Shown: positions 895 through 18,204, numbered from the stretch's first letter. The stretch is DNA of 64,000 bases from an uncultured cyanobacterium (GCA_963744145.1 CAVUSO010000001.1:2848001-2912000); one strand, 5' to 3'. Numbers and translations are program-made. Notes: generated from the sequence alone by a model not told the origin.

Positions 895-3800
895 TTAGTT
901 TAATGAGTGATTCTTCTTGGTGCCGATCTGATCGCAAAGACGCCGATCATGCTCGGTAGCACCAGAATCTGGATTGTCCAAATAAGTTTTCAACAAAAAG
1001 CAACCTTGTTCTAGTAGATAGTTAAAATCAAATTCTAAATTCCACAAAATGATCTTACCATCGCTACCAGCAGAGGCCAAAGTTTGACCATCTGGGCTAA
1101 AACTGACATTTTTCACAGAACTAAACATCGGGAGAGTATGTTCTAACTGGCCAGTGGCCGGATTCCAGAGTTTGATGGCCTTGTCCTCACTACCAGAGGC
1201 CAAGGTTTTTCCATCGGGGCTAAAACTGACACTGTAGACCAAACTACCATGTCCAGTGAGAGTCTGGAGTTCTTGGCCTGTAGTTACATCCCAAAGTTTA
1301 ATGGTCTTGTCCCAACTGCCAGAGGCCAAAGTTTGACCATCTGGATGGAAACTCACACTCAGGACTCGATCGCTATGTCCTTTGAAGCTACGGAGTTCCT
1401 TACCTGTATTCACATTCCAGATTTTGATACTGTTGTCCCCACTGCCAGAGGCCAGAGTTTGACCATCTGGGCTAAAACTGACGCTAAAAACCTCATTAGT
1501 ATGCCCAGTCAGAGTCCGGAGTTCCTTACCTGTAGTGACATTCCAGATTTTGATGCTGTTGTCCTCACTACCAGAGGCCAAAGTTTGACCATCCGGGCTA
1601 AAACTAATACTGTAGACCGAGCCAGTATGTCCAGTCAGAGTCCGGAGTAGCTGGCCGGTGGTCACATCCCAAAGTTTAATGCTGTTATCCTTACTACCAG
1701 AGGCCAAGGTTTTTCCATCCGGGCTGAACCTGACGCTAAAAACCACATTAGTATGCCCAGTCAGAGTCCGGAGTACCTGGCTGGTAGTCATATTCCAGAG
1801 TTTAATGCTGTTGTCCCAACTACCAGAGGCCAAGATTTGACCATCCGGGCTAAAACTGACACTATTGACCACATTAGTATGCCCAGTCAGAGTCCGAGGT
1901 TCTATGTTTGTGGTCACATCCCAGAGTTTAATGCTGTTGTCCCCACTACCAGAGGCCAAGATTTGACCATTCGGGCTAAAACTAATGCTATTGATCACAT
2001 TAGTATGCCCAGTTAGAGTTTGGAGTTCTTGGCCGGTGGTCACATCCCAGAGTTTAATGCTGTTGTCCCCACTACCAGAGGCCAAGATTTGACCATCCGG
2101 GCTAAAACTGATACTATTGACCACATTAGTATGCCCAGTCAGAGTTTGGAGTTCTTGGCCGGTGGTCACATTCCAGAGTTTAATGCTGTTGTCCCCACCA
2201 CCAAAGGCCACAGTTTGACCATCCGGGCTAAAACTGATGCTATACACATCACTACTATACCTAGTGAGATTCCGAAGGAGCTGGCCAGTGGTTACATCCC
2301 AAAGTTTGACGCTGTGATCCTCACTACCAGATGCTACGGTTTTCCCATCCGGGCTGAATCTGATGCTCCAGACCGAACTACTATGTCCAGTGAGAGTCCG
2401 AAGGATCTGACCGGTATTCACATCCCAGAGTTTGATATTGTTGTCCTTACTGCCAGAAGCCAAGGTTTTTCCATCGGGACTGAAACTGATACTATAAACA
2501 TCCCCAGTATGTCCAGTGAGAGTCCGAAGTTCCTTACCTGTAGTCACATCCCAGAGTTTAATGCTGTTGTCCCCACTACCAGAGGCCAAGATTTGACCAT
2601 TGGGGCTGAACCTGACACTCCAGACCACCCCAGTATGTCCCAAGAGAGTCTGGAGTTCCTTACCTGTAGTCACATCCCAGAGCTTGATGGTCTGATCCCG
2701 ACTACCAGTCACCAAGATTTTCCCATTCGGGCTAAAATTGACGCTATTCACTTCCAGGCTATGTTTGACCAAACGGTTACGTTCCCTAACATTAAAAACC
2801 GATTGTTCCAACGCTTCTGTTACAGTTGGCTCAGTGCCATGTTCTTTTTTCAAGCCATTTCCAGCCTCAAGTGCAGCAACTAAAGCATCAATTTTTTTAC
2901 CATTCTTCGATAGCAATAAAGAAGATTTTGCCTCAGCTTTAATTTCATTAAGTTTGGCTTCTTGGCGACTAATTTCGGCTTCAATGTTTTTATACACAGC
3001 AATGAGAGTCGCGATCGCGGCGATCGCTGCAACTACTGTCATTACTACCAACAGCAATCTTAACCGGATCAGCCGCTGTTTTTCCTGTTCAGCTGCCGCC
3101 TCGATCGCCTGATGGCTAGATTCAATAAACTTGGTTTGTACTTCTGTGACGAAGGGTTGCTTTTTACCTTGGGTTGCTTCCTGGAACCAGTGGTCAGCGA
3201 TCGCGAATTCACTTCCCCGCAGGAGTAAATCACTACTCTGATCCTGGTTTTGCCATTCGATCGCCCGACGCAGCCATTTAGTATGATTTTGGATATATTC
3301 CCGGTCTGTATCTAGGGTTCTGAGCAATTGATTAATATTGGCATAAAGATCACCTTCCTTTTGAGTAAAATCGATCCACTGTACTTTAGCCAACTCTGGA
3401 TGCAACTGGGTTTTATCCACCTCTTGATACAAGACCGTAATAAAACGTTTGTTAAGTTTGGCTGCATATTCCACTTCATCAGTACAATCGGGAGAATTGA
3501 TTGAGTGCGGTGACAGAATAAACAAAAAGTTGTCAGCACTTTCAATTCCCTGATAAACTTCCTGCTGAAAATCTACTCCTGAAGCAATACTCTCTTGCTC
3601 AAACCAAGTAGTTTTTCCCCTGGTTTGCAATTCATCATTCAACGAACGGACTAGATCTGCATCAGCTTTTGAGTAGGAGATAAATACATCAAGGGATACG
3701 GCTGGTGGTTGACGCAAACTTTCATTAATAAATGCTTTTTGCAAGGTAGTCGGTTGATGCTGAGTTCTCAGTTCCGCTCCCTTCAACCAAACTTCAGCAT

Positions 3801-5088
3801 GGCGCAAATTATAGCCCCGCAGTAAAATACTGGGATTGTGGTTCTGTCGCTCCCACTTCAGCGCTTTACTTAACAATTGCTTATGCTCTTCGTAATAGCT
3901 AGCTTCCTCCTGTAAAGCATTGAGCAACTGATCCAAATCCTGACGGAAGTCTGATTCAGTCTGATTATTGGTGAAGTCGATGAATTGTAAGGCTCGAATC
4001 ACTGGCGGCACTTGCTCCAAGTCAGTTGATGATATGATCAGAGGAATAATCCTTTTATGGAGACCCAGAGCATAGTTAATCTCTTGCTGACAATAATGGG
4101 ATGTCAAAGCATCGGTCGAGATTAAATAGACTATGTTATCCGCCTGTTCAATCCCCCGATTAATTGCCTCCTCAAATATTTCTCCAGTTTGAATATCCGT
4201 CTTATTTGTCCAAACCGTAATCCCTTCTCTGACCAATACCTCGCGAATTTTGGCCATAAAAGCGCTGTCCACTTCCGCATAGGAGAGAAACACCTGAGTC
4301 ATCAAGTTATTGGCATTTTTGATGCTCTCACCAATTAACTCACATTGCAGTAAAGTCGGTTCACAGGGCGGTTGTTCTTCCTGAAACCGCTGTTTTAACC
4401 ATAATTCTGCCGCTTTTCGTTGTTCTCCAGTCAATAGATAGCGGGTTTTTTTCTGTTGATTTTCCCACTTGATCGCTCGATTTAATAAAAATGTATGTTG
4501 CCGCACATAGTCCTGATGACGATGAAATATTTCGATTAATCCGCTCAATCCTTTCTCAAAATCATTAATCCCTTCTTGAACATAGATCCAGTTGATTTTG
4601 CTAATGATCGGGTGCATATTCAGGAAACTGGAATGTAATCCCTTTTCCTGATAAGTCTGCCATTCTGACTCTGATTTGTCAGGGTGACGCTGTTGCCAAG
4701 TCTCTTGGCTGATTTGTCCGACGTGCAGAAGTGGAATAATTCGTTTTTTTAGTTGGATGGCTAGTTCAATTTCTTTCCGACAATAGGGAGAGTTAACAGA
4801 ATGAGGCGAAATCAGAAATAGAAAGTTATCGGCTTTAGTGATCCCATCATCTATTTGATTTTGGTAATCAACCCCCAAAGGAATATCATTAAAATCAAAC
4901 CACACTTTGAACTCAGCCTGATTGAGTCGGTCTTGAAGTTGAGCAGCAAAGGCTTTACTATCAGCTCGACCATAGGAAATAAAAGCATCATAGAGACGTT
5001 CCGATGGCAGGTCTGAGGGCAAAGTCGCAGGGGGTGGAGTTGAAACAGTAGTCAAAAGATTATTGTTTGGGGGTTGAGATACATCCAT
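895..5088 (-). CDS. Triple TIR-domain, single-TM, WD40-repeat protein
   Basis: Three TIR motifs (DAFISYGR..SPYCRKEI; VFLSYAE..SHYCQQEI; DVFISYS..SPDCTDEV), hydrophobic LLLVVMTVVAAIAAIATLIAVY, 14 WD40 repeats; ATG at 5088 (track starts at TTG 5094). Confidence 0.93.
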   Translation of the reverse strand: MDVSQPPNNNLLTTVSTPPPATLPSDLPSERLYDAFISYGRADSKAFAAQLQDRLNQAEFKVWFDFNDIPLGVDYQNQIDDGITKADNFLFLISPHSVNSPYCRKEIELAIQLKKRIIPLLHVGQISQETWQQRHPDKSESEWQTYQEKGLHSSFLNMHPIISKINWIYVQEGINDFEKGLSGLIEIFHRHQDYVRQHTFLLNRAIKWENQQKKTRYLLTGEQRKAAELWLKQRFQEEQPPCEPTLLQCELIGESIKNANNLMTQVFLSYAEVDSAFMAKIREVLVREGITVWTNKTDIQTGEIFEEAINRGIEQADNIVYLISTDALTSHYCQQEINYALGLHKRIIPLIISSTDLEQVPPVIRALQFIDFTNNQTESDFRQDLDQLLNALQEEASYYEEHKQLLSKALKWERQNHNPSILLRGYNLRHAEVWLKGAELRTQHQPTTLQKAFINESLRQPPAVSLDVFISYSKADADLVRSLNDELQTRGKTTWFEQESIASGVDFQQEVYQGIESADNFLFILSPHSINSPDCTDEVEYAAKLNKRFITVLYQEVDKTQLHPELAKVQWIDFTQKEGDLYANINQLLRTLDTDREYIQNHTKWLRRAIEWQNQDQSSDLLLRGSEFAIADHWFQEATQGKKQPFVTEVQTKFIESSHQAIEAAAEQEKQRLIRLRLLLVVMTVVAAIAAIATLIAVYKNIEAEISRQEAKLNEIKAEAKSSLLLSKNGKKIDALVAALEAGNGLKKEHGTEPTVTEALEQSVFNVRERNRLVKHSLEVNSVNFSPNGKILVTGSRDQTIKLWDVTTGKELQTLLGHTGVVWSVRFSPNGQILASGSGDNSIKLWDVTTGKELRTLTGHTGDVYSISFSPDGKTLASGSKDNNIKLWDVNTGQILRTLTGHSSSVWSIRFSPDGKTVASGSEDHSVKLWDVTTGQLLRNLTRYSSDVYSISFSPDGQTVAFGGGDNSIKLWNVTTGQELQTLTGHTNVVNSISFSPDGQILASGSGDNSIKLWDVTTGQELQTLTGHTNVINSISFSPNGQILASGSGDNSIKLWDVTTNIEPRTLTGHTNVVNSVSFSPDGQILASGSWDNSIKLWNMTTSQVLRTLTGHTNVVFSVRFSPDGKTLASGSKDNSIKLWDVTTGQLLRTLTGHTGSVYSISFSPDGQTLASGSEDNSIKIWNVTTGKELRTLTGHTNEVFSVSFSPDGQTLASGSGDNSIKIWNVNTGKELRSFKGHSDRVLSVSFHPDGQTLASGSWDKTIKLWDVTTGQELQTLTGHGSLVYSVSFSPDGKTLASGSEDKAIKLWNPATGQLEHTLPMFSSVKNVSFSPDGQTLASAGSDGKIILWNLEFDFNYLLEQGCFLLKTYLDNPDSGATEHDRRLCDQIGTKKNHSLN
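1035..2780 (-). repeat. 14 tandem ~126-bp WD40-coding repeats
   Basis: Highly similar DNA units (e.g. gtcacatcccagagtttaatgctgttgtccccactaccagaggccaag recurs) with 42-aa period. Confidence 0.9.
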
Positions 5089-5295
5089 CGCCAAAAGCTT
5101 TATAGGTTTTATATTAAATTAGACTAGGGATTAGGTAAATAGAGTAACCGCCCATGCTCGAATCTTGATCAGGGTTTGCATAAGTGACACAATGTCGATT
5201 GCCAAGCTAAGGCTGTAATACTTACCATGTCTCAGTTACTAAAATTTTGGTAGTAATAGTTTCACTTTTTAAATTAAGAGTTCTACCCCAATCAG

Positions 5296-6645
5296 ATGGA
5301 AAAATCTTTTCAGATCAAATTCGATCCTGGACAATCGGCAAATGCTGTTATAGTTGAGAATTTCTCAGACTTGCCAAATGTGGTACAGAATTTAGATCTA
5401 CCCAATGCTTGTCCGATCATTGTCCTAGTTGGAGGAGCTAGTGGGATTAGCGATCGCGACTTGATTCTGCTGCGTCAGATGTTTGTGGAAGTTTTGGCTC
5501 CTTGTGTCCAATCTCTGGGAGCAATTGTAGTAGATGGTGGCACCGATGCTGGGATTATGAAATTGATGGGTCATGCCCGCACCCAAATTGGTGGTAGTTT
5601 TCCCTTAATTGGAGTAGCGGCAATTGGCACAGTGGTGTTCCCAGACCATCAACCCGCTAGGGATGACCCCGCTCCATTAGAACCAAACCACAGCCATTTT
5701 CTCTTAGTTCCTGGCTCTAATTGGGGAGACGAATCTCCCTGGCTGGCCCAATTAGCCAGCCAATTATCTCCAGGAAAACCATCCCTAACCATCGTCATCA
5801 ACGGGGGTGAAATTACTTGGCAAGATATATCTCAAAGTATTAAATTAGGTAGACCTGTACTTGTTATTGCTGGAAGTGGGCGCACCGCTGATCAAATAGC
5901 CGCAGCCTTAGCGGGAAAAGATGCCGACCAACGGGCAAAAGATTTAATTTTATGTGGACAAGTAAATTCTATTGACCTGAACAACGGTGGTGCTGCTTTA
6001 GCTAAGGCAATTACAGAGATGTTTTCTCATCAAAATCAGGAGCAGAAGCAAAAAATGGCCAGCAAAAAAGATCCTTATAAAGAATGGTTGAAAGAAGATT
6101 TCGGCAAGATGTTTGAAATGCTGAAACTGGGAGAAGTGCAAACACATTTTTTGCGATCGCGCTGGCTCGATCAAGTTTTGTGGATGGAAGGTAAAGCCGC
6201 TACTGCCAGAAATCGCCACTTCACGCTAAAAGTGATTACTATTCTTGGCGGTGTATTACTTCCCGCGCTAGTAACTTTGAATAACAGCGATAATCCAGAA
6301 GTCAGAGCTTACGTTTATTGGTCTACTTTTATTCTGAGCCTGCTCGTTTCAGCGACTTCCTCCCTTGAAGGGTTTTTTCTTTATGGAGATCAATGGCGCA
6401 ACTATCGTCGTTCAGTCGAATCCTTGAAAACCCAGGGTTGGCAATACTTTCAATTGAGTGGACCTTATATTTCTTATCAAACCCACGAAGAAGCTTTTCA
6501 TGCTTTTGCTGCCCAGGTAGAAGAAGTGATCCAACGGGATGTAGAAGTCTATGCTACTCAAATTGCCCAGTCTCAGAAACCAGGTGACAAGGACAAGGAC
6601 AAGGACAAGGACAAGGATGCCGATCCGCAACAACCAGAAAACTAA
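5296..6645 (+). CDS. TRPM-type SLOG (LSDAT_prok-like) domain fused to SLATT/DUF4231 two-TM domain
   Basis: SLOG motifs IVLVGGA, VVDGGTDAGIM, PLIGVA, LEPNHSHFLLVPG..WGDE, INGG, AGSGRTAD; C-terminal RWLDQ..TM..TM..WRNYRRSVESLK of DUF4231/SLATT. Confidence 0.85.
   Translation: MEKSFQIKFDPGQSANAVIVENFSDLPNVVQNLDLPNACPIIVLVGGASGISDRDLILLRQMFVEVLAPCVQSLGAIVVDGGTDAGIMKLMGHARTQIGGSFPLIGVAAIGTVVFPDHQPARDDPAPLEPNHSHFLLVPGSNWGDESPWLAQLASQLSPGKPSLTIVINGGEITWQDISQSIKLGRPVLVIAGSGRTADQIAAALAGKDADQRAKDLILCGQVNSIDLNNGGAALAKAITEMFSHQNQEQKQKMASKKDPYKEWLKEDFGKMFEMLKLGEVQTHFLRSRWLDQVLWMEGKAATARNRHFTLKVITILGGVLLPALVTLNNSDNPEVRAYVYWSTFILSLLVSATSSLEGFFLYGDQWRNYRRSVESLKTQGWQYFQLSGPYISYQTHEEAFHAFAAQVEEVIQRDVEVYATQIAQSQKPGDKDKDKDKDKDADPQQPEN
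6586..6615 (+). repeat. (GACAAG)x5 hexamer encoding DKDKDKDKDK
   Basis: Read directly in the sequence. Confidence 0.9.
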
Positions 6646-6683
6646 CAGTTTTTAGCCATTTAATGTGAAGTTACATAGATTTA

Positions 6684-6747
6684 GATCCCCCTTAAGAAGG
6701 GGGACTTTAAATTCATGCTCCCCCTTCTTAAGGGGGTTGGGGGGATC
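6684..6747. repeat. Cyanobacterial palindromic CCCCCTTAAGAAGGGGG-type dispersed repeat between convergent genes
   Basis: gatcccccttaagaagggggac...cccccttcttaagggggttggggggatc; related half copy near 37409-37445. Confidence 0.7.
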
Positions 6748-6866
6748 AATTCTATCCACCCTCATAAAAAATTAGTATTAGATAAAATCATGCAGCTAAT
6801 TTGTCTATAAAAAACTCCCCAAGATTTAAAAAAATCATGGAGAGATAATCTGAGAACTAATTTTAA

Positions 6867-7964
6867 TTAAGCTGGATTTACCTGAACTTGACGTTGCAGT
6901 AAATTTTGGATTGAGGCTTTTTCGATAATTCCCAGTAATACACCATTATCTTGAATCACCGGAATTAATGGTAGTTGTTTTTGGTCGAGCAGGGTAATTA
7001 CTTCTGATAGAGATTGTTGCGGTTTAACAGTTGTGGTAAATTCCATTAGCTCGGTTAATTCTCTGACTTGAGTTTGCACCCAAAGATTAGTAGAGATCGC
7101 TTTTAAAGACTCAACATTAATCACACCTAAAAGTTGTCCGACTGGATCAATTACTAAGAATTTACTCCCATTATTTTGACCAATAATATAGTTGTTGGCA
7201 AATTCGCGTAAAGATAGATCGGCTGCAACAACTTGACTATTGGGATTAATTGCGTCTGCTGCTGTTAATCCAGATATTTTATCTTGTATGGTTGCATACT
7301 GAGCAGAACGTCCAGCATTTTGCAGCAAAAACCAACCAACTAACATATTCCAGAATTGACCAAAAATTAGCCCAGAGACGATCGCTACCCAACCAAAGAT
7401 TTGACCGACTCGACTGGCAAAAACTACACCTTTATAAGGATTTTTGGTGATTTTCCACACTAGAGCTTTTAAGATATTACCACCATCAAGAGGTAATCCA
7501 GGAATTAAGTTAAATAAAGCTAGTGCTAAGTTGATCGAAGCCATTAAACTCGTGATTGCTGCCCATCTACCTGATATTGGTGTAAATATACCGATACTCA
7601 GGAAGAATATAAATAGCATTAAACTCACTAAAGGTCCGGCGATCGCTACCCAAAACGCATCTCCAGGGGTTTTTGATTCTTTTTCTAAGTTGGCTAAACC
7701 ACCAAATATAAACAAAGTAATCGATTTAACTTGTATCCCTTGTTGGATTGCGACTAAGCTATGACCCAATTCATGGGCGATCACTGAAGCAAATAACAAT
7801 ATCGCAGTGATAAAACCTAACAACCAAGGAAGTGGTAATCCAGGAAACTGTGTTGCTAATCCATTTCCATAGGTAAAAGTTACCAACGCAAGTACAAAAA
7901 ACCAAGAGGGATTGATGTAGAAAGGAATCCCAAATAGATTACCGACGCGAAAACTACCATTCAT
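6867..7964 (-). CDS. Site-2 protease (M50) family metalloprotease with CBS-like C-terminus
   Basis: HELGH zinc motif, AIAGP, FNLIPGLPLDGG; likely start MNGSFRVG. Confidence 0.93.
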   Translation of the reverse strand: MNGSFRVGNLFGIPFYINPSWFFVLALVTFTYGNGLATQFPGLPLPWLLGFITAILLFASVIAHELGHSLVAIQQGIQVKSITLFIFGGLANLEKESKTPGDAFWVAIAGPLVSLMLFIFFLSIGIFTPISGRWAAITSLMASINLALALFNLIPGLPLDGGNILKALVWKITKNPYKGVVFASRVGQIFGWVAIVSGLIFGQFWNMLVGWFLLQNAGRSAQYATIQDKISGLTAADAINPNSQVVAADLSLREFANNYIIGQNNGSKFLVIDPVGQLLGVINVESLKAISTNLWVQTQVRELTELMEFTTTVKPQQSLSEVITLLDQKQLPLIPVIQDNGVLLGIIEKASIQNLLQRQVQVNPA

Positions 7965-8199
7965 ATTATTACCCCCGATCATCAAGAGTGCGTTTTTTCA
8001 CACTTTGATAGTTTTTATTTTTCTCTTTGCTCTAATTGTAACGATTTGTAAATGTGTTGTTAATATTTCTAGTACCGTATTATCCGTCCAAAACGGTTCG
8101 GTTTTAATAATTAAACGATTTTTAATGGTAAATTGTGAACTTTATGAGCATTGTTCAGTAAATAAGCAAATAATCGAGCAGAGGAACGAACCGATAATT

Positions 8200-8526
8200 T
8201 TAACAGTAGGCACTAATATCTTCACCACAAGTATCGGCAAGGAAGCATAAAGCTCTAAAACGTAAACCTACTAATTGCTCATAGAGAGGGTTTAGTTTGC
8301 ACATCGGAGGGATATAAAATAAGGTACGTCCAAAAAGCTGGATATGGCGTTCAAAAGGACATTGAGCCGGAATCAGTTTGCAGATTAGTCTTGCCGTTTT
8401 AGGGTTTTTGACTTCAATTCCATCTAAATAGTTACGAATTGGTTGCATTATTTCACTAAGGAGATTAGGGTGTTTTAAGTGGTGGTGCGGAAAAGTGCTG
8501 TTGGAGAAAGACATATTTAACCTCAT
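8200..8526 (-). CDS. Mo-dependent nitrogenase C-terminal domain-like small protein
   Basis: LIPAQCPFER..IPPMCKLNPLYEQLVGLRFRAL..CGED signature. Confidence 0.85.
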   Translation of the reverse strand: MRLNMSFSNSTFPHHHLKHPNLLSEIMQPIRNYLDGIEVKNPKTARLICKLIPAQCPFERHIQLFGRTLFYIPPMCKLNPLYEQLVGLRFRALCFLADTCGEDISAYC

Positions 8527-8943
8527 CGATGAGTCTTTTTCTTTGACACTTTTATCATCGACTAGTTCCCAAATTATTGCTGTGATGTAAAGAAGCTTTA
8601 TTGGTGATGATTTTGTTTGTTGAGCGTGATGTAAAACAACTATTATTTGCGATCGCTTACCCAGATTTTGGTGATTTAGATCACTAACATTTTCCTACTT
8701 CTAACTAAAAGAAAATATTGACTTTTTTTCGGGTGAATTTAAAATTTAGATCACATTTTTGCTCTTTATTCCGAAAAAAATGTATTTGATTATACTACTT
8801 TACATCATAGCATAAAAATCAGTAAACTTTTTCAAATTTTCCTTAAATTTTAAGATTAATTATATTTTTTTCATAAATTTATCTATGCTAATATGCTTTA
8901 ATTAGTATAGAAGCAAAGTTTGCGCTCTTATCAGCAGAGGTTG

Positions 8944-9141
8944 ATGATGTCAGAAGCTAACTCTAATGTTTCCATTCCCCAAAGTCTTCAAGAACTGGAA
9001 CAGGCCATTCAGCGCTATAGAGCCAGTGATTTGAATGATCCAGAACTTCTTGCTCAATGGCAAGCAATTCGGGATGCTTCTCTGGCCCAAAAAGACCCAG
9101 AACCTGGTACTGATAAGGTTCCCGGTGAAGCTAGTTATTAA
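8944..9141 (+). CDS. Small hypothetical protein
   Basis: ORF with ATG at 8944/8947, protein-like composition, followed by a hairpin terminator. Confidence 0.55.
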   Translation: MMSEANSNVSIPQSLQELEQAIQRYRASDLNDPELLAQWQAIRDASLAQKDPEPGTDKVPGEASY

Positions 9142-9201
9142 GCTGATCTATGAGTTGTGAGTAATTAATTAGCGTAACTTACGATTGCCCATATTTAATT
9201 A

Positions 9202-9231
9202 AACTCCTTCACCAATAAGTGAGGGAGTTTT
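9202..9231 (+). terminator. Probable intrinsic terminator
   Basis: aaactccttcac-caataa-gtgagggagttt stem followed by T-rich tract. Confidence 0.55.
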
Positions 9232-9400
9232 GATTTATTTTTTCATCAAGCCTTCCTCACTCAAAGAAAAGGGATTAACAGCGATCGCCCAACAGCGAAT
9301 TAGTCGGCAACAAAGATGAAAAGATGCCGAAAATATCACAGTTGCTTGAGAGGGATGTTCTGGTAGAATGAAACAGCCAATAGAGTTTGGTTAAATCATC

Positions 9401-16674: not shown

Positions 16675-18204
16675 ATGGGACTACCCTGGTACCGAGTACA
16701 TACAGTTGTCTTAAATGACCCAGGTCGTCTGATAGCTGTACACCTGATGCACACTGCTCTCGTCGCAGGTTGGGCTGGTTCTATGGCCCTATATGAATTG
16801 GCCATTTTCGATCCTAGTGATCCGATCCTCAACCCCATGTGGCGTCAGGGAATGTTTGTGATGCCCTTTATGGCTCGTCTTGGGATCACCCAATCTTGGG
16901 GTGGTTGGAGCCTAACTGGCCAACCCGCTGTTGATCCTGGGATTTGGAGCTTTGAAGGTGTTGCCACAGCTCACATTCTCTTGTCTGGTTTGCTGTTCCT
17001 CGCTGCTGTTTGGCACTGGGTTTATTGGGATTTAGAACTCTTCAGAGACCCCCGCACTGGAGAACCAGCACTAGACTTGCCAAATATGTTTGGCATTCAT
17101 TTATTCTTGTCTGGTTTACTCTGTTTTGGCTTCGGTGCTTTTCACTTGACTGGATTATTTGGACCGGGGATGTGGGTTTCTGATCCCTATGGTCTCACCG
17201 GTAGTGTCCAGCCAGTAGCTCCGGCTTGGGGTCCGGAAGGGTTTAACCCCTTTAACCCTGGTGGAATTGTCGCTCACCATATTGCCGCAGGAATTGTCGG
17301 AATTATTGCTGGTATCTTTCATTTAACCGTCAGACCACCAGAAAGGCTCTATCGAGCTTTGCGGATGGGTAACATTGAAACCGTACTATCAAGTAGTATT
17401 GCCGCAGTATTTTTTGCAGCCTTTGTGGTTGCAGGGACAATGTGGTACGGCAGTGCGGCTACACCGATCGAACTATTTGGCCCAACTCGCTATCAGTGGG
17501 ACAGTGGTTATTTCCAAAAGGAAATTGACCGTCGCGTTCAAGCTGATGTAGCTGAAGGTAAGACCTTGAGCGAAGCTTATGGAGCCATTCCCGAAAAACT
17601 GGCTTTCTACGATTATGTAGGTAATAGCCCTGCTAAAGGTGGTTTGTTCCGGGTTGGTCCAATGAATAATGGCGATGGTCTAGCTCAAGATTGGCTCGGT
17701 CATGCTGTATTTAAAGATGCTGAAGGTCGGGAATTGTGGGTACGTCGGCTCCCTAACTTCTTTGAAAACTTCCCTGTGGTCTTGACTGATAAAGATGGGG
17801 TAGTTCGTGCGGATATTCCTTTCCGTCGTGCTGAATCTAAATACAGTTTTGAGCAAGTTGGTGTTACCGTCAGTTTCTATGGTGGTTCCCTGGATGGTCA
17901 GACTTTTGATGACCCAGCCCTAGTGAAGCAGTTCGCTCGTGGTTCTCAATTGGGTGAAATCTTTAAGTTCGATCGCGAAAAATTTGACTCTGATGGTGTG
18001 TTCCGCACCAGTACAAGGGGTTGGTTTACCTTTGGACATGCGGTGTTTGCCTTACTGTTCTTCTTTGGTCATATCTGGCACGGTTCTCGGACGATCTTCC
18101 GTGATGTGTTTGCTGGTATTGATCCCGACTTAGATGAAGATCAAGTCGAGTTTGGTGTGTTCCAAAAATTAGGTGATGCTACCACTCGGAAGAAAGAAGC
18201 TTAA
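16675..18204 (+). CDS. psbB: Photosystem II CP47 reaction-centre antenna protein
   Basis: [19 protein letters not shown]… full-length 509 aa; AGGAGG RBS. Confidence 0.99.

Follow-up and report, generated by a model that had tools for sequence, protein, structure and literature searches.

A divergent cyanobacterial gene pair encoding a 3xTIR-TM-WD40 membrane protein and a SLOG-SLATT protein as a candidate receptor-type, Thoeris-like signaling system

A membrane protein with three TIR domains and its partner, a membrane protein of the SLOG-SLATT type, are encoded by two divergent genes at positions 895-6645 of the window, a stretch of 64,000 nt from an uncultured cyanobacterium (GCA_963744145.1 CAVUSO010000001.1:2848001-2912000; positions are counted from its first letter). 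Catalytic and pocket residues are conserved within this domain anatomy, and the two families are coupled in both genomic position and phyletic distribution. Their pairing across many genomes suggests, as far as sequences can indicate, a receptor-type version of the Thoeris pathway. It seems probable that the two genes form a Thoeris-like signaling system with a membrane receptor as its TIR component, and that several such receptors act on one SLOG-SLATT effector.

The 3xTIR-TM-14xWD40 gene lies on the minus strand (895-5088) and encodes 1397 amino acids from an ATG at 5088 (MDVSQ...), which is the likely start codon. With an in-frame TTG at 5094 included, the open reading frame is 895-5094 on the minus strand, or 1399 amino acids. 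The SLOG-SLATT gene occupies 5296-6645 on the plus strand and encodes 449 amino acids. Taking the ATG as the start, the intergenic spacer is 5089-5295, or 207 bp, in agreement with an earlier sequence-only reading that described a divergent pair about 207 bp apart. In this spacer, sigma-70-like matches do not exceed the frequency seen in shuffled sequence. A terminator-like hairpin, identified as a consensus match, lies at 6686-6704 on the plus strand, 41 nt past the SLOG-SLATT stop codon. The WD40 array also contains plus-strand open reading frames at 1249-1650 and 2020-2883, which are antisense by-products of its tandem repeat.

In the product of the minus-strand gene, three stretches match the Pfam family TIR_2 (E 2.3e-81) and 14 match WD40 (E 2.2e-188). 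On the minus strand, the TIR domains are located at 4720-4983 (the core Pfam match), 3925-4293 and 3322-3687. Each carries the glutamate that had been recognized in its motif (CRKEI, CQQEI and CTDEV); these are Glu108 (codon 4771-4773), Glu338 (codon 4081-4083) and Glu540 (codon 3475-3477), respectively. In alignments, the glutamate of TIR1 corresponds to that of PdTIR (3h16) and the AbTIR-type structure 7uxr, and the glutamate of TIR3 corresponds to that of Cat1 (9mud). Among 20 3xTIR relatives, with the positions taken in the order TIR1, TIR2, TIR3, the first two are invariant and the third is conserved in at least 90%. An AF2 model of amino acids 3-700 (pLDDT 83.4, pTM 0.70) contains single TIRs that match the NADase TIRs of SARM1, SPARTA TIR-APAZ, Cat1 and TIR-STING. 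All three domains are presumed to be NADases.

The claim that the protein lacks an NTPase domain also held. None was found among the best 25 of 63 Pfam families, and the AF2 model of amino acids 3-700 consists of three TIR folds and helical linkers only. Because the TIRs and their helical extensions cover amino acids ~35-660, the transmembrane helix spans 680-701, and the WD40 array begins near 768, there is no space for such a domain. On the same three grounds, a STAND/NLR-type NTPase-WD40 sensor was rejected, as the central NACHT/NB-ARC domain is absent.

Hydrophobicity predicts a single transmembrane helix of 22 residues (2992-3057, minus strand; Kyte-Doolittle 2.89), and the 14 Pfam WD40 repeats that follow (1027-2793, minus strand), the number given in the earlier reading, amount to two propellers' worth. 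At the DNA level, the array is a 126-bp tandem repeat (1165-2747, 12.6 copies, 79% matching), and its variable residues are confined to a few positions of the 42-amino-acid unit. Of 24 relatives, 22-23 have a hydrophobic helix 30-40 amino acids past the last TIR. CHASE2 or PASTA takes the place of WD40 after this helix in TIR proteins that are homologous or analogous. CHASE2 and PASTA are established extracytoplasmic sensor domains, the latter binding peptidoglycan. In the helix flanks, the N side has 98 lysines and arginines in total, compared with 61 for the C side. This bias is weak among the WD40 forms, being 4/3 for the protein at 895-5088, and would fit an alternative in which the proteins are coupled as proposed but the WD40 array is cytoplasmic, with a helix that only tethers the protein or is no true span and an intracellular ligand such as a phage protein. 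One paralog of 1676 amino acids (G000:C1:71311-76341) has no transmembrane helix, so WD40 arrays of the 3xTIR family also occur in the cytoplasm, and most known WD40 propellers of the G-beta type belong to cytoplasmic proteins. However, a single span forces the two ends onto opposite sides of the membrane, and the TIRs require cytoplasmic NAD+. Together with the strong hydrophobicity of the helix and the sensors found at the same post-helix position elsewhere, this makes a cytoplasmic WD40 array rather unlikely.

In the partner protein, a TRPM-type SLOG domain is fused to a SLATT domain. The SLOG domain (amino acids 39-233; 5410-5994, plus strand) belongs to LSDAT_prok (PF18171; E 4e-72, 242 bits, cut-off 25.4) and has the MHR1/2-like fold. 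The SLATT/DUF4231 domain (amino acids 285-420; 6148-6555, plus strand) includes two transmembrane helices at about 309-328 and 340-361. Its assignment draws on matches to Pfam DUF4231 (amino acids 292-398, E 1.4e-26, 93.4 bits) and SLATT_3 (E 2.8e-9) and to NCBIfam SLATT_1 (amino acids 285-420, E 6.9e-29, 100.5 bits), and the AF2 model (pLDDT 82.7) contains long helices at 280-328 and 334-361. The fusion is as had been described from the sequence.

The kinship of this SLOG domain with TRPM2 was likewise borne out, the ADPR-binding MHR1/2 region being its nearest relative in both sequence and fold. When the family profile was compared with TRPM proteins, TRPM2 scored best (3e-21), followed by TRPM8, 3, 7, 4 and 5. 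In a Foldseek search of the PDB, all but one of the 50 matches listed were TRPM N-terminal domains; the exception was a ciliary-tip central-pair chain of 256 residues (9nw3). The match to nvTRPM2 (9jje) has an rmsd of 3.8 over 284 columns with 22% identity. For TRPM2, the Foldseek E is about 1e-12. According to a study of human TRPM2, Y295 clamps ADPR, R358 binds its phosphates, and R302 binds its ribose (PMC6759353). Two of these three named contact residues are matched here. Specifically, Y295 aligns to W143, a position that is W or F across the SLOG family, and R358 aligns to R196, which is at least 90% conserved. R302 aligns to L150, so the pocket differs from that of TRPM2. The glycine-rich GGTxxG loop, GGTDAG in this protein, is invariant in the family. 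Membership in the TRPM channel class was rejected, because only the 2-TM SLATT domain and no 6-TM TRP channel domain follows the SLOG domain.

Predicted assembly of four copies of the SLATT region (amino acids 258-430) gave 0.47 (median of three runs) versus 0.00 for the best of three controls, with a calibration that is only rough because a custom alignment and four copies were used. This mark is reached by 20 of 30 solved same-chain pairs and by 1 of 23 solved single chains. The runs had at least 92% of contacts in common, with a partner pLDDT of at least 75. This modeling supports, but does not show, self-association of the SLATT domain as a lateral oligomer.

TIR genes recur beside SLOG/SLATT genes, as the pairing in the window had led the sequence-only reading to expect. 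Of the 28 usable loci in a sample drawn evenly from the phylum, 8 have a TIR gene no more than two genes from the SLOG/SLATT core and 10 have one within 10 kb on either side. The same adjacency occurs at 8/80 top genome loci and 16/72 metagenome loci. Chance alone would give about 0.2 adjacent loci in 28, a rough estimate based on ~10 TIR genes per ~6000 genes rather than a computed control. All three of the nearest orthologs (L030, L031 and L032; 74-80% identity) have a TIR-TM-WD40x14 gene ~120 bp downstream of a fused SLOG-SLATT gene. A separate NNH2-NACHT-HEAT gene is found upstream in L030 and L032.

Adjacency of TIR and SLOG genes is seen in at least six gene orders. These include SLOG, SLATT, SLATT and 3xTIR-WD40 in L138, 3xTIR-WD40 followed 18 bp later by SLOG in L136, SLOG, patatin and 3xTIR-WD40 in L134, L137 and L155, and 3xTIR-CHASE2, SLOG and SLATT in L073, L100 and L127. 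On high-GC contigs (L146, L147, L166 and L171), fused SLOG-SLATT genes adjoin genes for 2xTIR or TIR-TM-PASTAx3 proteins; these contigs are taken to be non-cyanobacterial from their GC content (0.67-0.71) alone. Partners are interchanged while the pairing stays, the sensor after the transmembrane helix being WD40, CHASE2 or PASTA and the effector SLATT or patatin. A TIR gene is absent from the 8 kb on either side of most SLOG+SLATT pairs, about 50 loci of Nostoc among them.

The two families also co-occur in the same genomes. Among 401 sampled cyanobacterial genomes, SLOG exceeds the cut-off in 32, of which 31 were counted after G085 was left out for a partial match of 44 residues, and the 3xTIR family is present in 26 (E<=1e-30). 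Both families occur in 24 genomes, only the 3xTIR family in 2, only SLOG in 7 and neither in 368. The Fisher probability of 3e-30 overstates the association, because related genomes are not independent. The association holds within single families: in f6, SLOG is present in 13 of 46 genomes, and these include all six with the 3xTIR family (p 1.8e-4), and in f3 both occur in the same 2 of 25 genomes (p 0.003). As a control, generic TIR_2 is present in 121 of the 401 genomes and in all 31 SLOG genomes, so that the 7 SLOG genomes without the 3xTIR family still carry other TIR_2 genes. The link between TIR and SLOG exceeds chance adjacency.

These distributions bear on a second alternative, in which adjacency has no meaning, the 3xTIR-TM-WD40 protein is an autonomous NAD+-depleting sensor-effector, similar to TIR-fused Avs or SARM1, and SLOG-SLATT is a separate system for another nucleotide. 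The source genome contains a single SLOG gene but nine 3xTIR loci, and eight of the nine have unrelated neighbors, with no SLOG, SLATT or patatin gene beside them. Such receptors can therefore be encoded, and are perhaps active, alone, for example as NAD+-depleting effectors. Moreover, most Nostoc SLOG+SLATT pairs sit among housekeeping genes without a TIR gene, and nucleotides other than ADPR can bind SLOG or MHR1/2, structures of TRPM4 with ATP being among the fold matches listed. Two separate systems are nevertheless unlikely given that 24 of the 26 genomes with the 3xTIR family carry SLOG, which occurs in only 31-32 of the 401, and given the variety of gene orders, the high-GC contigs with other TIR architectures and the excess of adjacent loci over the chance estimate. 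Nine 3xTIR loci and a single SLOG gene fit many receptors acting on one effector rather than a closed two-gene system.

A third alternative accepts the link and assigns it another logic. In one version, the SLOG domain would act on the TIR product as an enzyme or a sponge, removing or processing it and thereby terminating the signal or setting a threshold. In the other, the TIRs would be adaptors that dock directly on SLOG-SLATT without a diffusible messenger. LOG-type hydrolases do belong to the SLOG superfamily, both proteins are membrane-anchored and could thus be in direct contact, and loci that pair a stand-alone SLOG with patatin instead of SLATT indicate that SLOG is a separable module. 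In contrast, the closest SLOG relatives are the non-catalytic, ligand-binding MHR1/2 regions of TRPM proteins, and the catalytic glutamate in all three TIRs speaks for enzymes. Of the 24 genomes with both families, 13 have their TIR genes distant from SLOG or on other contigs, which suits a diffusible signal better than co-assembly. Either version of this logic therefore seems quite improbable.

The label of a defense system, which the sequence-only reading had attached to the pair, finds no support in its context, because the flanking genes are housekeeping genes (DUF1345, M50 protease, MnmG and psbB) and not a defense island. The suggested PADLOC search was divided in outcome: the receptor gave matches at the level of the TIR domain only, and the SLOG-SLATT protein matched no families.

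In the receptor-type pathway that is favored here, NADase activity, the messenger, its binding by SLOG and pore formation are the steps that we infer. The C-terminal WD40 propellers, probably outside the cytoplasmic membrane, would bind a ligand and thereby alter how the three TIRs in the cytoplasm pack or oligomerize, creating composite NADase sites. The TIRs would then split NAD+ to yield an ADP-ribose-derived messenger, which would bind in the SLOG cleft, of TRPM2 type, in the neighboring protein. Binding would cause lateral assembly or opening of the 2-TM SLATT domain, and the membrane would be permeabilized or depolarized, with growth arrest, cell death or ion flux as the result. Several receptors with different WD40 surfaces would feed one effector, the locus at 895-6645 holding the linked copy; the nine-to-one ratio in the source genome makes this layout likely and suggests a hub design.

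A receptor layout with exchangeable sensors would carry TIR and NAD-derived signaling to cues outside the cytoplasm. The receiver here corresponds, in bacteria, to the domain with which TRPM2 binds ADPR, and the system thus allows one to ask directly whether the link between an ADPR-type messenger and a TRPM-type SLOG domain predates animals. More tentatively, and with the balance of probability somewhat against so general a scheme, there may be a class of bacterial transmembrane TIR receptors in which an outer sensor, WD40 here and CHASE2 or PASTA elsewhere, signals an event at the cell envelope to a TIR NADase whose ADPR-type product gates a conductance through SLOG, with one effector and many repeat-diversified receptors per genome. 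Such a class would be a prokaryotic forerunner of the Toll-like receptor layout and of the animal pairing of an NAD-derived messenger with a TRPM2-type sensor, messengers of this kind being made in animals by SARM1 and other TIR NADases, and it might serve envelope surveillance or programmed cell death in filamentous bacteria and not only the sensing of phage in the cytoplasm.

Parts of this scheme have precedents. Burroughs et al., in a 2015 paper in NAR, reportedly introduced the definitions of SLOG, of SLATT and of the TRPM-type SLOG family, with the prediction that SLATT is a nucleotide-gated pore; the definitions and this prediction are restated in later papers from the same group. The 2015 paper may already mention that TRPM-type SLOG genes of prokaryotes have a gene for a TIR-repeat protein next to them. 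The literature search found no experiment on a SLOG/SLATT/TIR system of the predicted conflict-system kind.

In the Thoeris systems known so far, the TIR proteins are small and cytoplasmic and sense phage inside the cell. In the available part of a recent preprint, type VII Thoeris is described as a TIR protein (ThsB) with a SLATT effector (ThsH) that is thought to oligomerize in the membrane upon an NAD-derived signal, canonical cADPR, while type III combines several TIR proteins with a SLOG effector and the SLOG domain of type I ThsA binds 3'cADPR (bioRxiv 10.64898/2025.12.03.692087). Since TIR with SLATT and multiple TIRs with SLOG appear in that part of the preprint, the signaling logic is not new; the terms WD40, LSDAT and DUF4231 are absent from it, supplementary tables aside. 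The pair in the window shares with Thoeris systems a TIR protein whose catalytic glutamates align with those of solved NADase TIRs and an adjacent effector gene with a ligand-sensing module, in a pairing conserved across genomes. As in type VII, so far as the preprint's available part describes it, a TIR protein is paired with a SLATT membrane effector, which is modeled here also as a lateral oligomer. By that description, with ThsH compared by its domains, the present effector differs in bearing an additional TRPM-type SLOG sensor, the TIR protein is a 1397-amino-acid 3xTIR-TM-WD40 protein rather than the small cytoplasmic ThsB, and the genes are divergent rather than in an operon and lack a defense-island context.

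With types I and III, as they appear in the same source, the pair would share SLOG as the receiver of a TIR-made signal and, with type III, several TIR units per effector. In contrast, its SLOG domain belongs to another family, LSDAT_prok, and the effector moiety is SLATT instead of the SIR2 of ThsA (SIR2-SLOG). Membership in type I, which calls for a SIR2-SLOG or TM-SLOG effector, was rejected, as the PADLOC ThsA models do not match the SLOG-SLATT protein, and membership in type III was rejected on an NCBIfam ThcB4 score of 101.1 bits against a cut-off of 220.

Compared with TRPM2 of animals and choanoflagellates, the SLOG domain is homologous to MHR1/2, retains the aromatic clamp, the phosphate-binding arginine and the glycine loop, and is likewise fused to a module of membrane permeability, here the predicted SLATT. 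It differs in the 2-TM SLATT domain in place of the 6-TM channel, in R302, which is not conserved, and in the absence of a NUDT9H domain. The single span between cytoplasmic output and outer sensor recalls PknB-type kinase-TM-PASTA proteins and CHASE2 receptors, and PASTA and CHASE2 versions of the TIR receptors adjoin SLOG-SLATT genes; unlike in the receptor kinases, the output is a presumed NADase TIR. Finally, the proposed combination of a cytoplasmic TIR with a repeat-array ectodomain, separated by one membrane span, is the one that Toll-like receptors possess. Here, however, three TIRs stand at the N-terminus, WD40 repeats take the place of LRRs, and homology to Toll-like receptors is limited to the TIR domain.

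The two divergent genes belong to a 7.7-Mb cyanobacterial genome and have ordinary neighbours in the window, which encode a DUF1345 protein, an M50 protease with CBS domains, MnmG, sugar-nucleotide enzymes and PsbB (psbB at 16675). The open reading frame for the 3xTIR-TM-WD40 protein spans 895-5094 on the minus strand and gives 1399 aa from a TTG codon, the likely start of the gene being the ATG at 5088. Its product possesses three TIR_2 domains (E 2.3e-81) with the motifs CRKEI, CQQEI and CTDEV, a single very hydrophobic helix at aa 680-701, and 14 WD40 repeats in Pfam. The SLOG-SLATT gene (5296-6645, plus strand) encodes 449 aa, of which aa 39-233 form the LSDAT_prok domain, a prokaryotic TRPM-type SLOG (E 4e-72), followed by DUF4231/SLATT. 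A gap of 207 bp separates the two genes. The sequence-only reading had described this anatomy correctly in all details. The WD40 array includes 13 full copies of a 42-aa unit that are nearly identical, with the differences gathered at three or four positions. Diversifying repeat sensors are described as having this same pattern, near-identical units that vary at a few positions. A scan of 4900-7000 found a terminator-like hairpin 3' of the SLOG-SLATT gene and no excess of promoter-like sites (3 seen, 3.6 expected from shuffles), and Rfam and tRNA scans across the window gave no matches. Positions 8000-9400, which separate the M50 protease gene from the genes that follow, are GC-poor (0.32-0.35) and hold only short reading frames of 81 and 108 aa.

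The proposed partnership of the two gene families was tested in a single set of 401 cyanobacterial genomes, from which all co-occurrence counts are drawn. SLOG exceeded the cut-off in 32 genomes, representing 25 of 155 genera; the count used was 31, after one partial match of 44 residues was dropped. The TIR family was found in 26 genomes (query aa 3-665, E<=1e-30, with scoring limited to the three best candidates in each genome), and 24 of these 26 also have SLOG. Two genomes have the TIR family alone, both of one genus and with assemblies of 300-450 contigs, seven have SLOG alone, and 368 have neither. The corresponding Fisher test gives 3e-30, a value inflated by the non-independence of related genomes. 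The association is also seen within single families: in one (f6), all six TIR-family genomes are among the 13 of 46 that have SLOG (p 1.8e-4), and in another (f3), the same two of 25 genomes have both (p 0.003). Generic TIR_2, which served as the control, is much commoner, occurring in 121 of the 401 genomes and 71 of the 155 genera, including all 31 SLOG genomes. In 13 of the 24 genomes with both families, the TIR genes lie far from SLOG or on a different contig; the partnership can do without adjacency. This fits a diffusible signal and the nine-to-one ratio of 3xTIR loci to SLOG in the source genome.

Three groups can be told apart among the homologues of the SLOG-SLATT protein: fused forms with 73-80% identity (about a dozen), fused forms with 35-50% identity (some 35), and stand-alone SLOGs about 250 aa long, of which there are many. 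Across 80 genome loci, the gene after a stand-alone SLOG is almost always a separate SLATT gene, which identifies the SLOG and SLATT pair as the core unit. The Nostoc bias of this 80-locus set was avoided by examining 10 kb on either side of SLOG in 30 other SLOG-bearing genomes of the even 401-genome sample, these being all others over the cut-off apart from one that was left out (G085). Without a SLOG reading-frame call, two of these loci (L112 and L139) and eight of 80 metagenome loci were dropped, leaving 28 and 72. The sequence-only reading had named neighbourhood conservation as a check on its proposal, and the adjacency does recur: the SLOG/SLATT core has a TIR gene no more than two genes away in 8/28 even-sample loci (10/28 within 10 kb on either side), 8/80 loci of the top genome set, and 16/72 metagenome loci, many of them on contigs shorter than 4 kb. 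The three sets partly overlap; L100 and L127, for instance, denote one locus. Where the forms are fused, the TIR gene is adjacent in 3/3 genome loci and 4/9 metagenome loci. All three nearest orthologues (L030, L031, L032) are fused SLOG-SLATT genes with a TIR-TM-WD40x14 gene about 120 bp downstream, and two of them have an NNH2-NACHT-HEAT gene upstream.

The gene order at these loci is variable. The 3xTIR-WD40 gene may come last, after SLOG, SLATT and a SLATT-C39-GH19 gene (L138) or after SLOG and patatin (L134, L137, L155), or it may precede SLOG by 18 bp, with SLATT divergent (L136, L184). Elsewhere a 3xTIR-CHASE2 gene is followed by SLOG and SLATT (L073, L100). On four high-GC contigs (L146, L147, L166, L171), taken as non-cyanobacterial from GC content alone, fused SLOG-SLATT adjoins 2xTIR or TIR-TM-PASTAx3 proteins; one 2xTIR gene is divergent from it at a distance of 3 bp, in the same orientation as in the window. 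Such recurrent linkage with reshuffled order, exchanged sensors and exchanged effectors is the usual mark of a functional system. Chance could also have placed the two genes side by side, an explanation that the phyletic and adjacency counts lead us to reject. A functional link between the TIR family and TRPM-type SLOG is well supported by comparative genomics and can be held with considerable confidence.

Several related loci carry variant architectures. A patatin-like phospholipase stands in the place of SLATT between stand-alone SLOG and 3xTIR-WD40 at three of them (L134:10781-11908, L137:10710-11966, L155:4193-5326); here the effector is exchanged and the TIR-SLOG pairing retained. SLATT/DUF4231 proteins with either a C-terminal Peptidase_C39_2 and a GH19 chitinase/lysozyme-like domain or GH19 alone (L138:5946-8144, L099:9025-10422) suggest that some SLATT effectors act against the cell wall as well. 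Coleofasciculus-type loci have a SLATT_1 protein of about 1070 aa with a TPR-S sensor (cluster c24) directly upstream of stand-alone SLOG, at L104:2092-5367 and about 14 other loci (e.g., L079, L092, L094, L096-L099, L101-L106), and thus carry two different SLATT proteins. The TIR-TM-PASTAx3 proteins beside fused SLOG-SLATT on high-GC metagenome contigs (L147:5038-6588, L171:1903-3474) have a proline-rich tail and share the layout of PknB-type kinases, with TIR replacing the kinase. One genome (G383) encodes three tandem 3xTIR-WD40 proteins of about 1570-1600 aa each (C48:2892-14702) and, in addition, a TIR-WD40 protein beside SLOG.

The source genome has only one LSDAT_prok gene and 28 TIR_2 matches. 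A phmmer search with the window TIR region found ten 3xTIR reading frames distributed over nine loci, of which one is split. Each paralogue might have had a SLATT or patatin partner of its own; this was rejected, as the scanned neighbours at the eight other loci include no SLOG, SLATT or patatin gene at any of them. Taken on their own, these partnerless loci argue against a closed two-gene system. Beside them lie genes for ABC transporters, a GDSL lipase, a PD-(D/E)XK nuclease, histidine kinases and CheW, among others. One 3xTIR-TM-WD40 paralogue (L024:4721-14815, within G000:C1:626401-646400) is flanked by a CHAT-TPR caspase-like gene on one side and by SWIM and DUF5691 genes on the other, which is a different conflict-system context within the same genome. 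A tandem pair outside the window (G000:C1:71311-78634; L026:6311-13634) encodes a 1676-aa protein that has about 18 WD40 repeats and lacks a TM helix, and a 775-aa protein that has a weak hydrophobic helix and lacks WD40; the pair resembles a soluble sensor plus a membrane stub, or else a split gene. Another paralogue outside the window (L028, G000:C1:5312472-5315175) is broken into overlapping frames of 387 and 533 aa and is probably a frameshifted copy. The sole other DUF4231/SLATT gene of the genome (L029:5716-6573, G000:C1:4783716-4784573; 285 aa) adjoins a PAS-GAF-GGDEF gene and has neither SLOG nor TIR beside it.

The motif glutamates of TIR1 and TIR3 align with the glutamate of solved NADase TIRs, and across 20 3xTIR relatives, the first two of the three glutamates are invariant and the third is at least 90% conserved. 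Modelled with AF2 (pLDDT 83.4, pTM 0.70), aa 3-700 form three TIR folds, with a conserved helical extension after each, and the single TIR domains of the model match SARM1, SPARTA, Cat1 and TIR-STING. The SLOG-SLATT model has a pLDDT of 82.7; among the 50 Foldseek matches listed, 49 are TRPM N-terminal domains, the exception being 9nw3, and the SLOG family profile has TRPM2 as its first match (3e-21). Human TRPM2 is described as contacting ADPR through Y295, R358, R302 and the beta5-alpha3 loop (Huang et al., 2019, PMC6759353). Y295 aligns with W143, an aromatic position (W or F) across the SLOG family, and R358 with R196, which is at least 90% conserved; R302 aligns with L150 and is not conserved. 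The invariant GGTDAG stretch is taken as the putative counterpart of the loop. With two of the three contact residues and GGTDAG conserved, this pocket is partly retained. Four modelled copies of the SLATT domain form a side-by-side membrane assembly with a score of 0.47, the best control scoring 0.00; at least 92% of the contacts recur between runs, at a pLDDT of at least 75. Among proteins of solved structure, 20 of the 30 one-chain pairs and 1 of the 23 single chains reach this mark, a calibration that is only rough here because a custom alignment and four copies were used. The model supports SLATT self-association, short of demonstration.

A hydrophobic helix 30-40 residues past the last TIR occurs in 22-23 of 24 relatives, and the K+R in its flanks number 98 on the N side and 61 on the C side. 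CHASE2 forms have a clear K+R bias (5/2, 5/1, 4/1, 5/2) and another TM helix after the CHASE2 domain. Both CHASE2 (Zhulin, 2003) and PASTA (Yeats, 2002) are described as established extracytoplasmic sensors. Analogy with them would put the WD40 array on the far side of the cytoplasmic membrane, a placement somewhat favoured over its opposite; this step is the weaker because the 3xTIR-TM-WD40 protein has a K+R bias of only 4/3, one paralogue lacks the TM helix altogether, and a second combines a weak helix with the absence of WD40.

The best explanation, which we consider reasonably probable as a whole, is a pathway in which an outer ligand would act on the receptor to trigger TIR NADase activity, the NADase would produce an ADPR-type messenger, and the messenger would act through SLOG on SLATT to permeabilise the membrane. 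Phage defence, envelope surveillance and programmed cell death are candidate roles. The SLATT pore prediction reportedly goes back to a founding paper by Burroughs and colleagues of 2015. Later papers restate it, with SLATT predicted to be a nucleotide-gated pore (Kaur et al., 2020; Iyer et al., 2022). The literature found for LSDAT, DUF4231, TIR with CHASE2 and TIR with PASTA contains neither a description of the architecture nor an experiment on it; Burroughs et al. (2015) may already note the neighbourhood.

As described in a survey posted as a preprint in December 2025 (10.64898/2025.12.03.692087), 3'cADPR is bound by SLOG in type I Thoeris, type III combines several TIR proteins with a SLOG effector, and type VII consists of a TIR and the SLATT effector ThsH, with cADPR as the signal. 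That survey left out stand-alone TIR proteins, and the words WD40, LSDAT and DUF4231 do not appear in its main text. The TIR-SLOG-SLATT system belongs with the Thoeris kind, as a variant. Its novelty relative to known Thoeris lies in a TIR component laid out as a receptor, in outer sensors that can be exchanged, in a receiver of TRPM2 type, and in the combination of many receptors with one effector.
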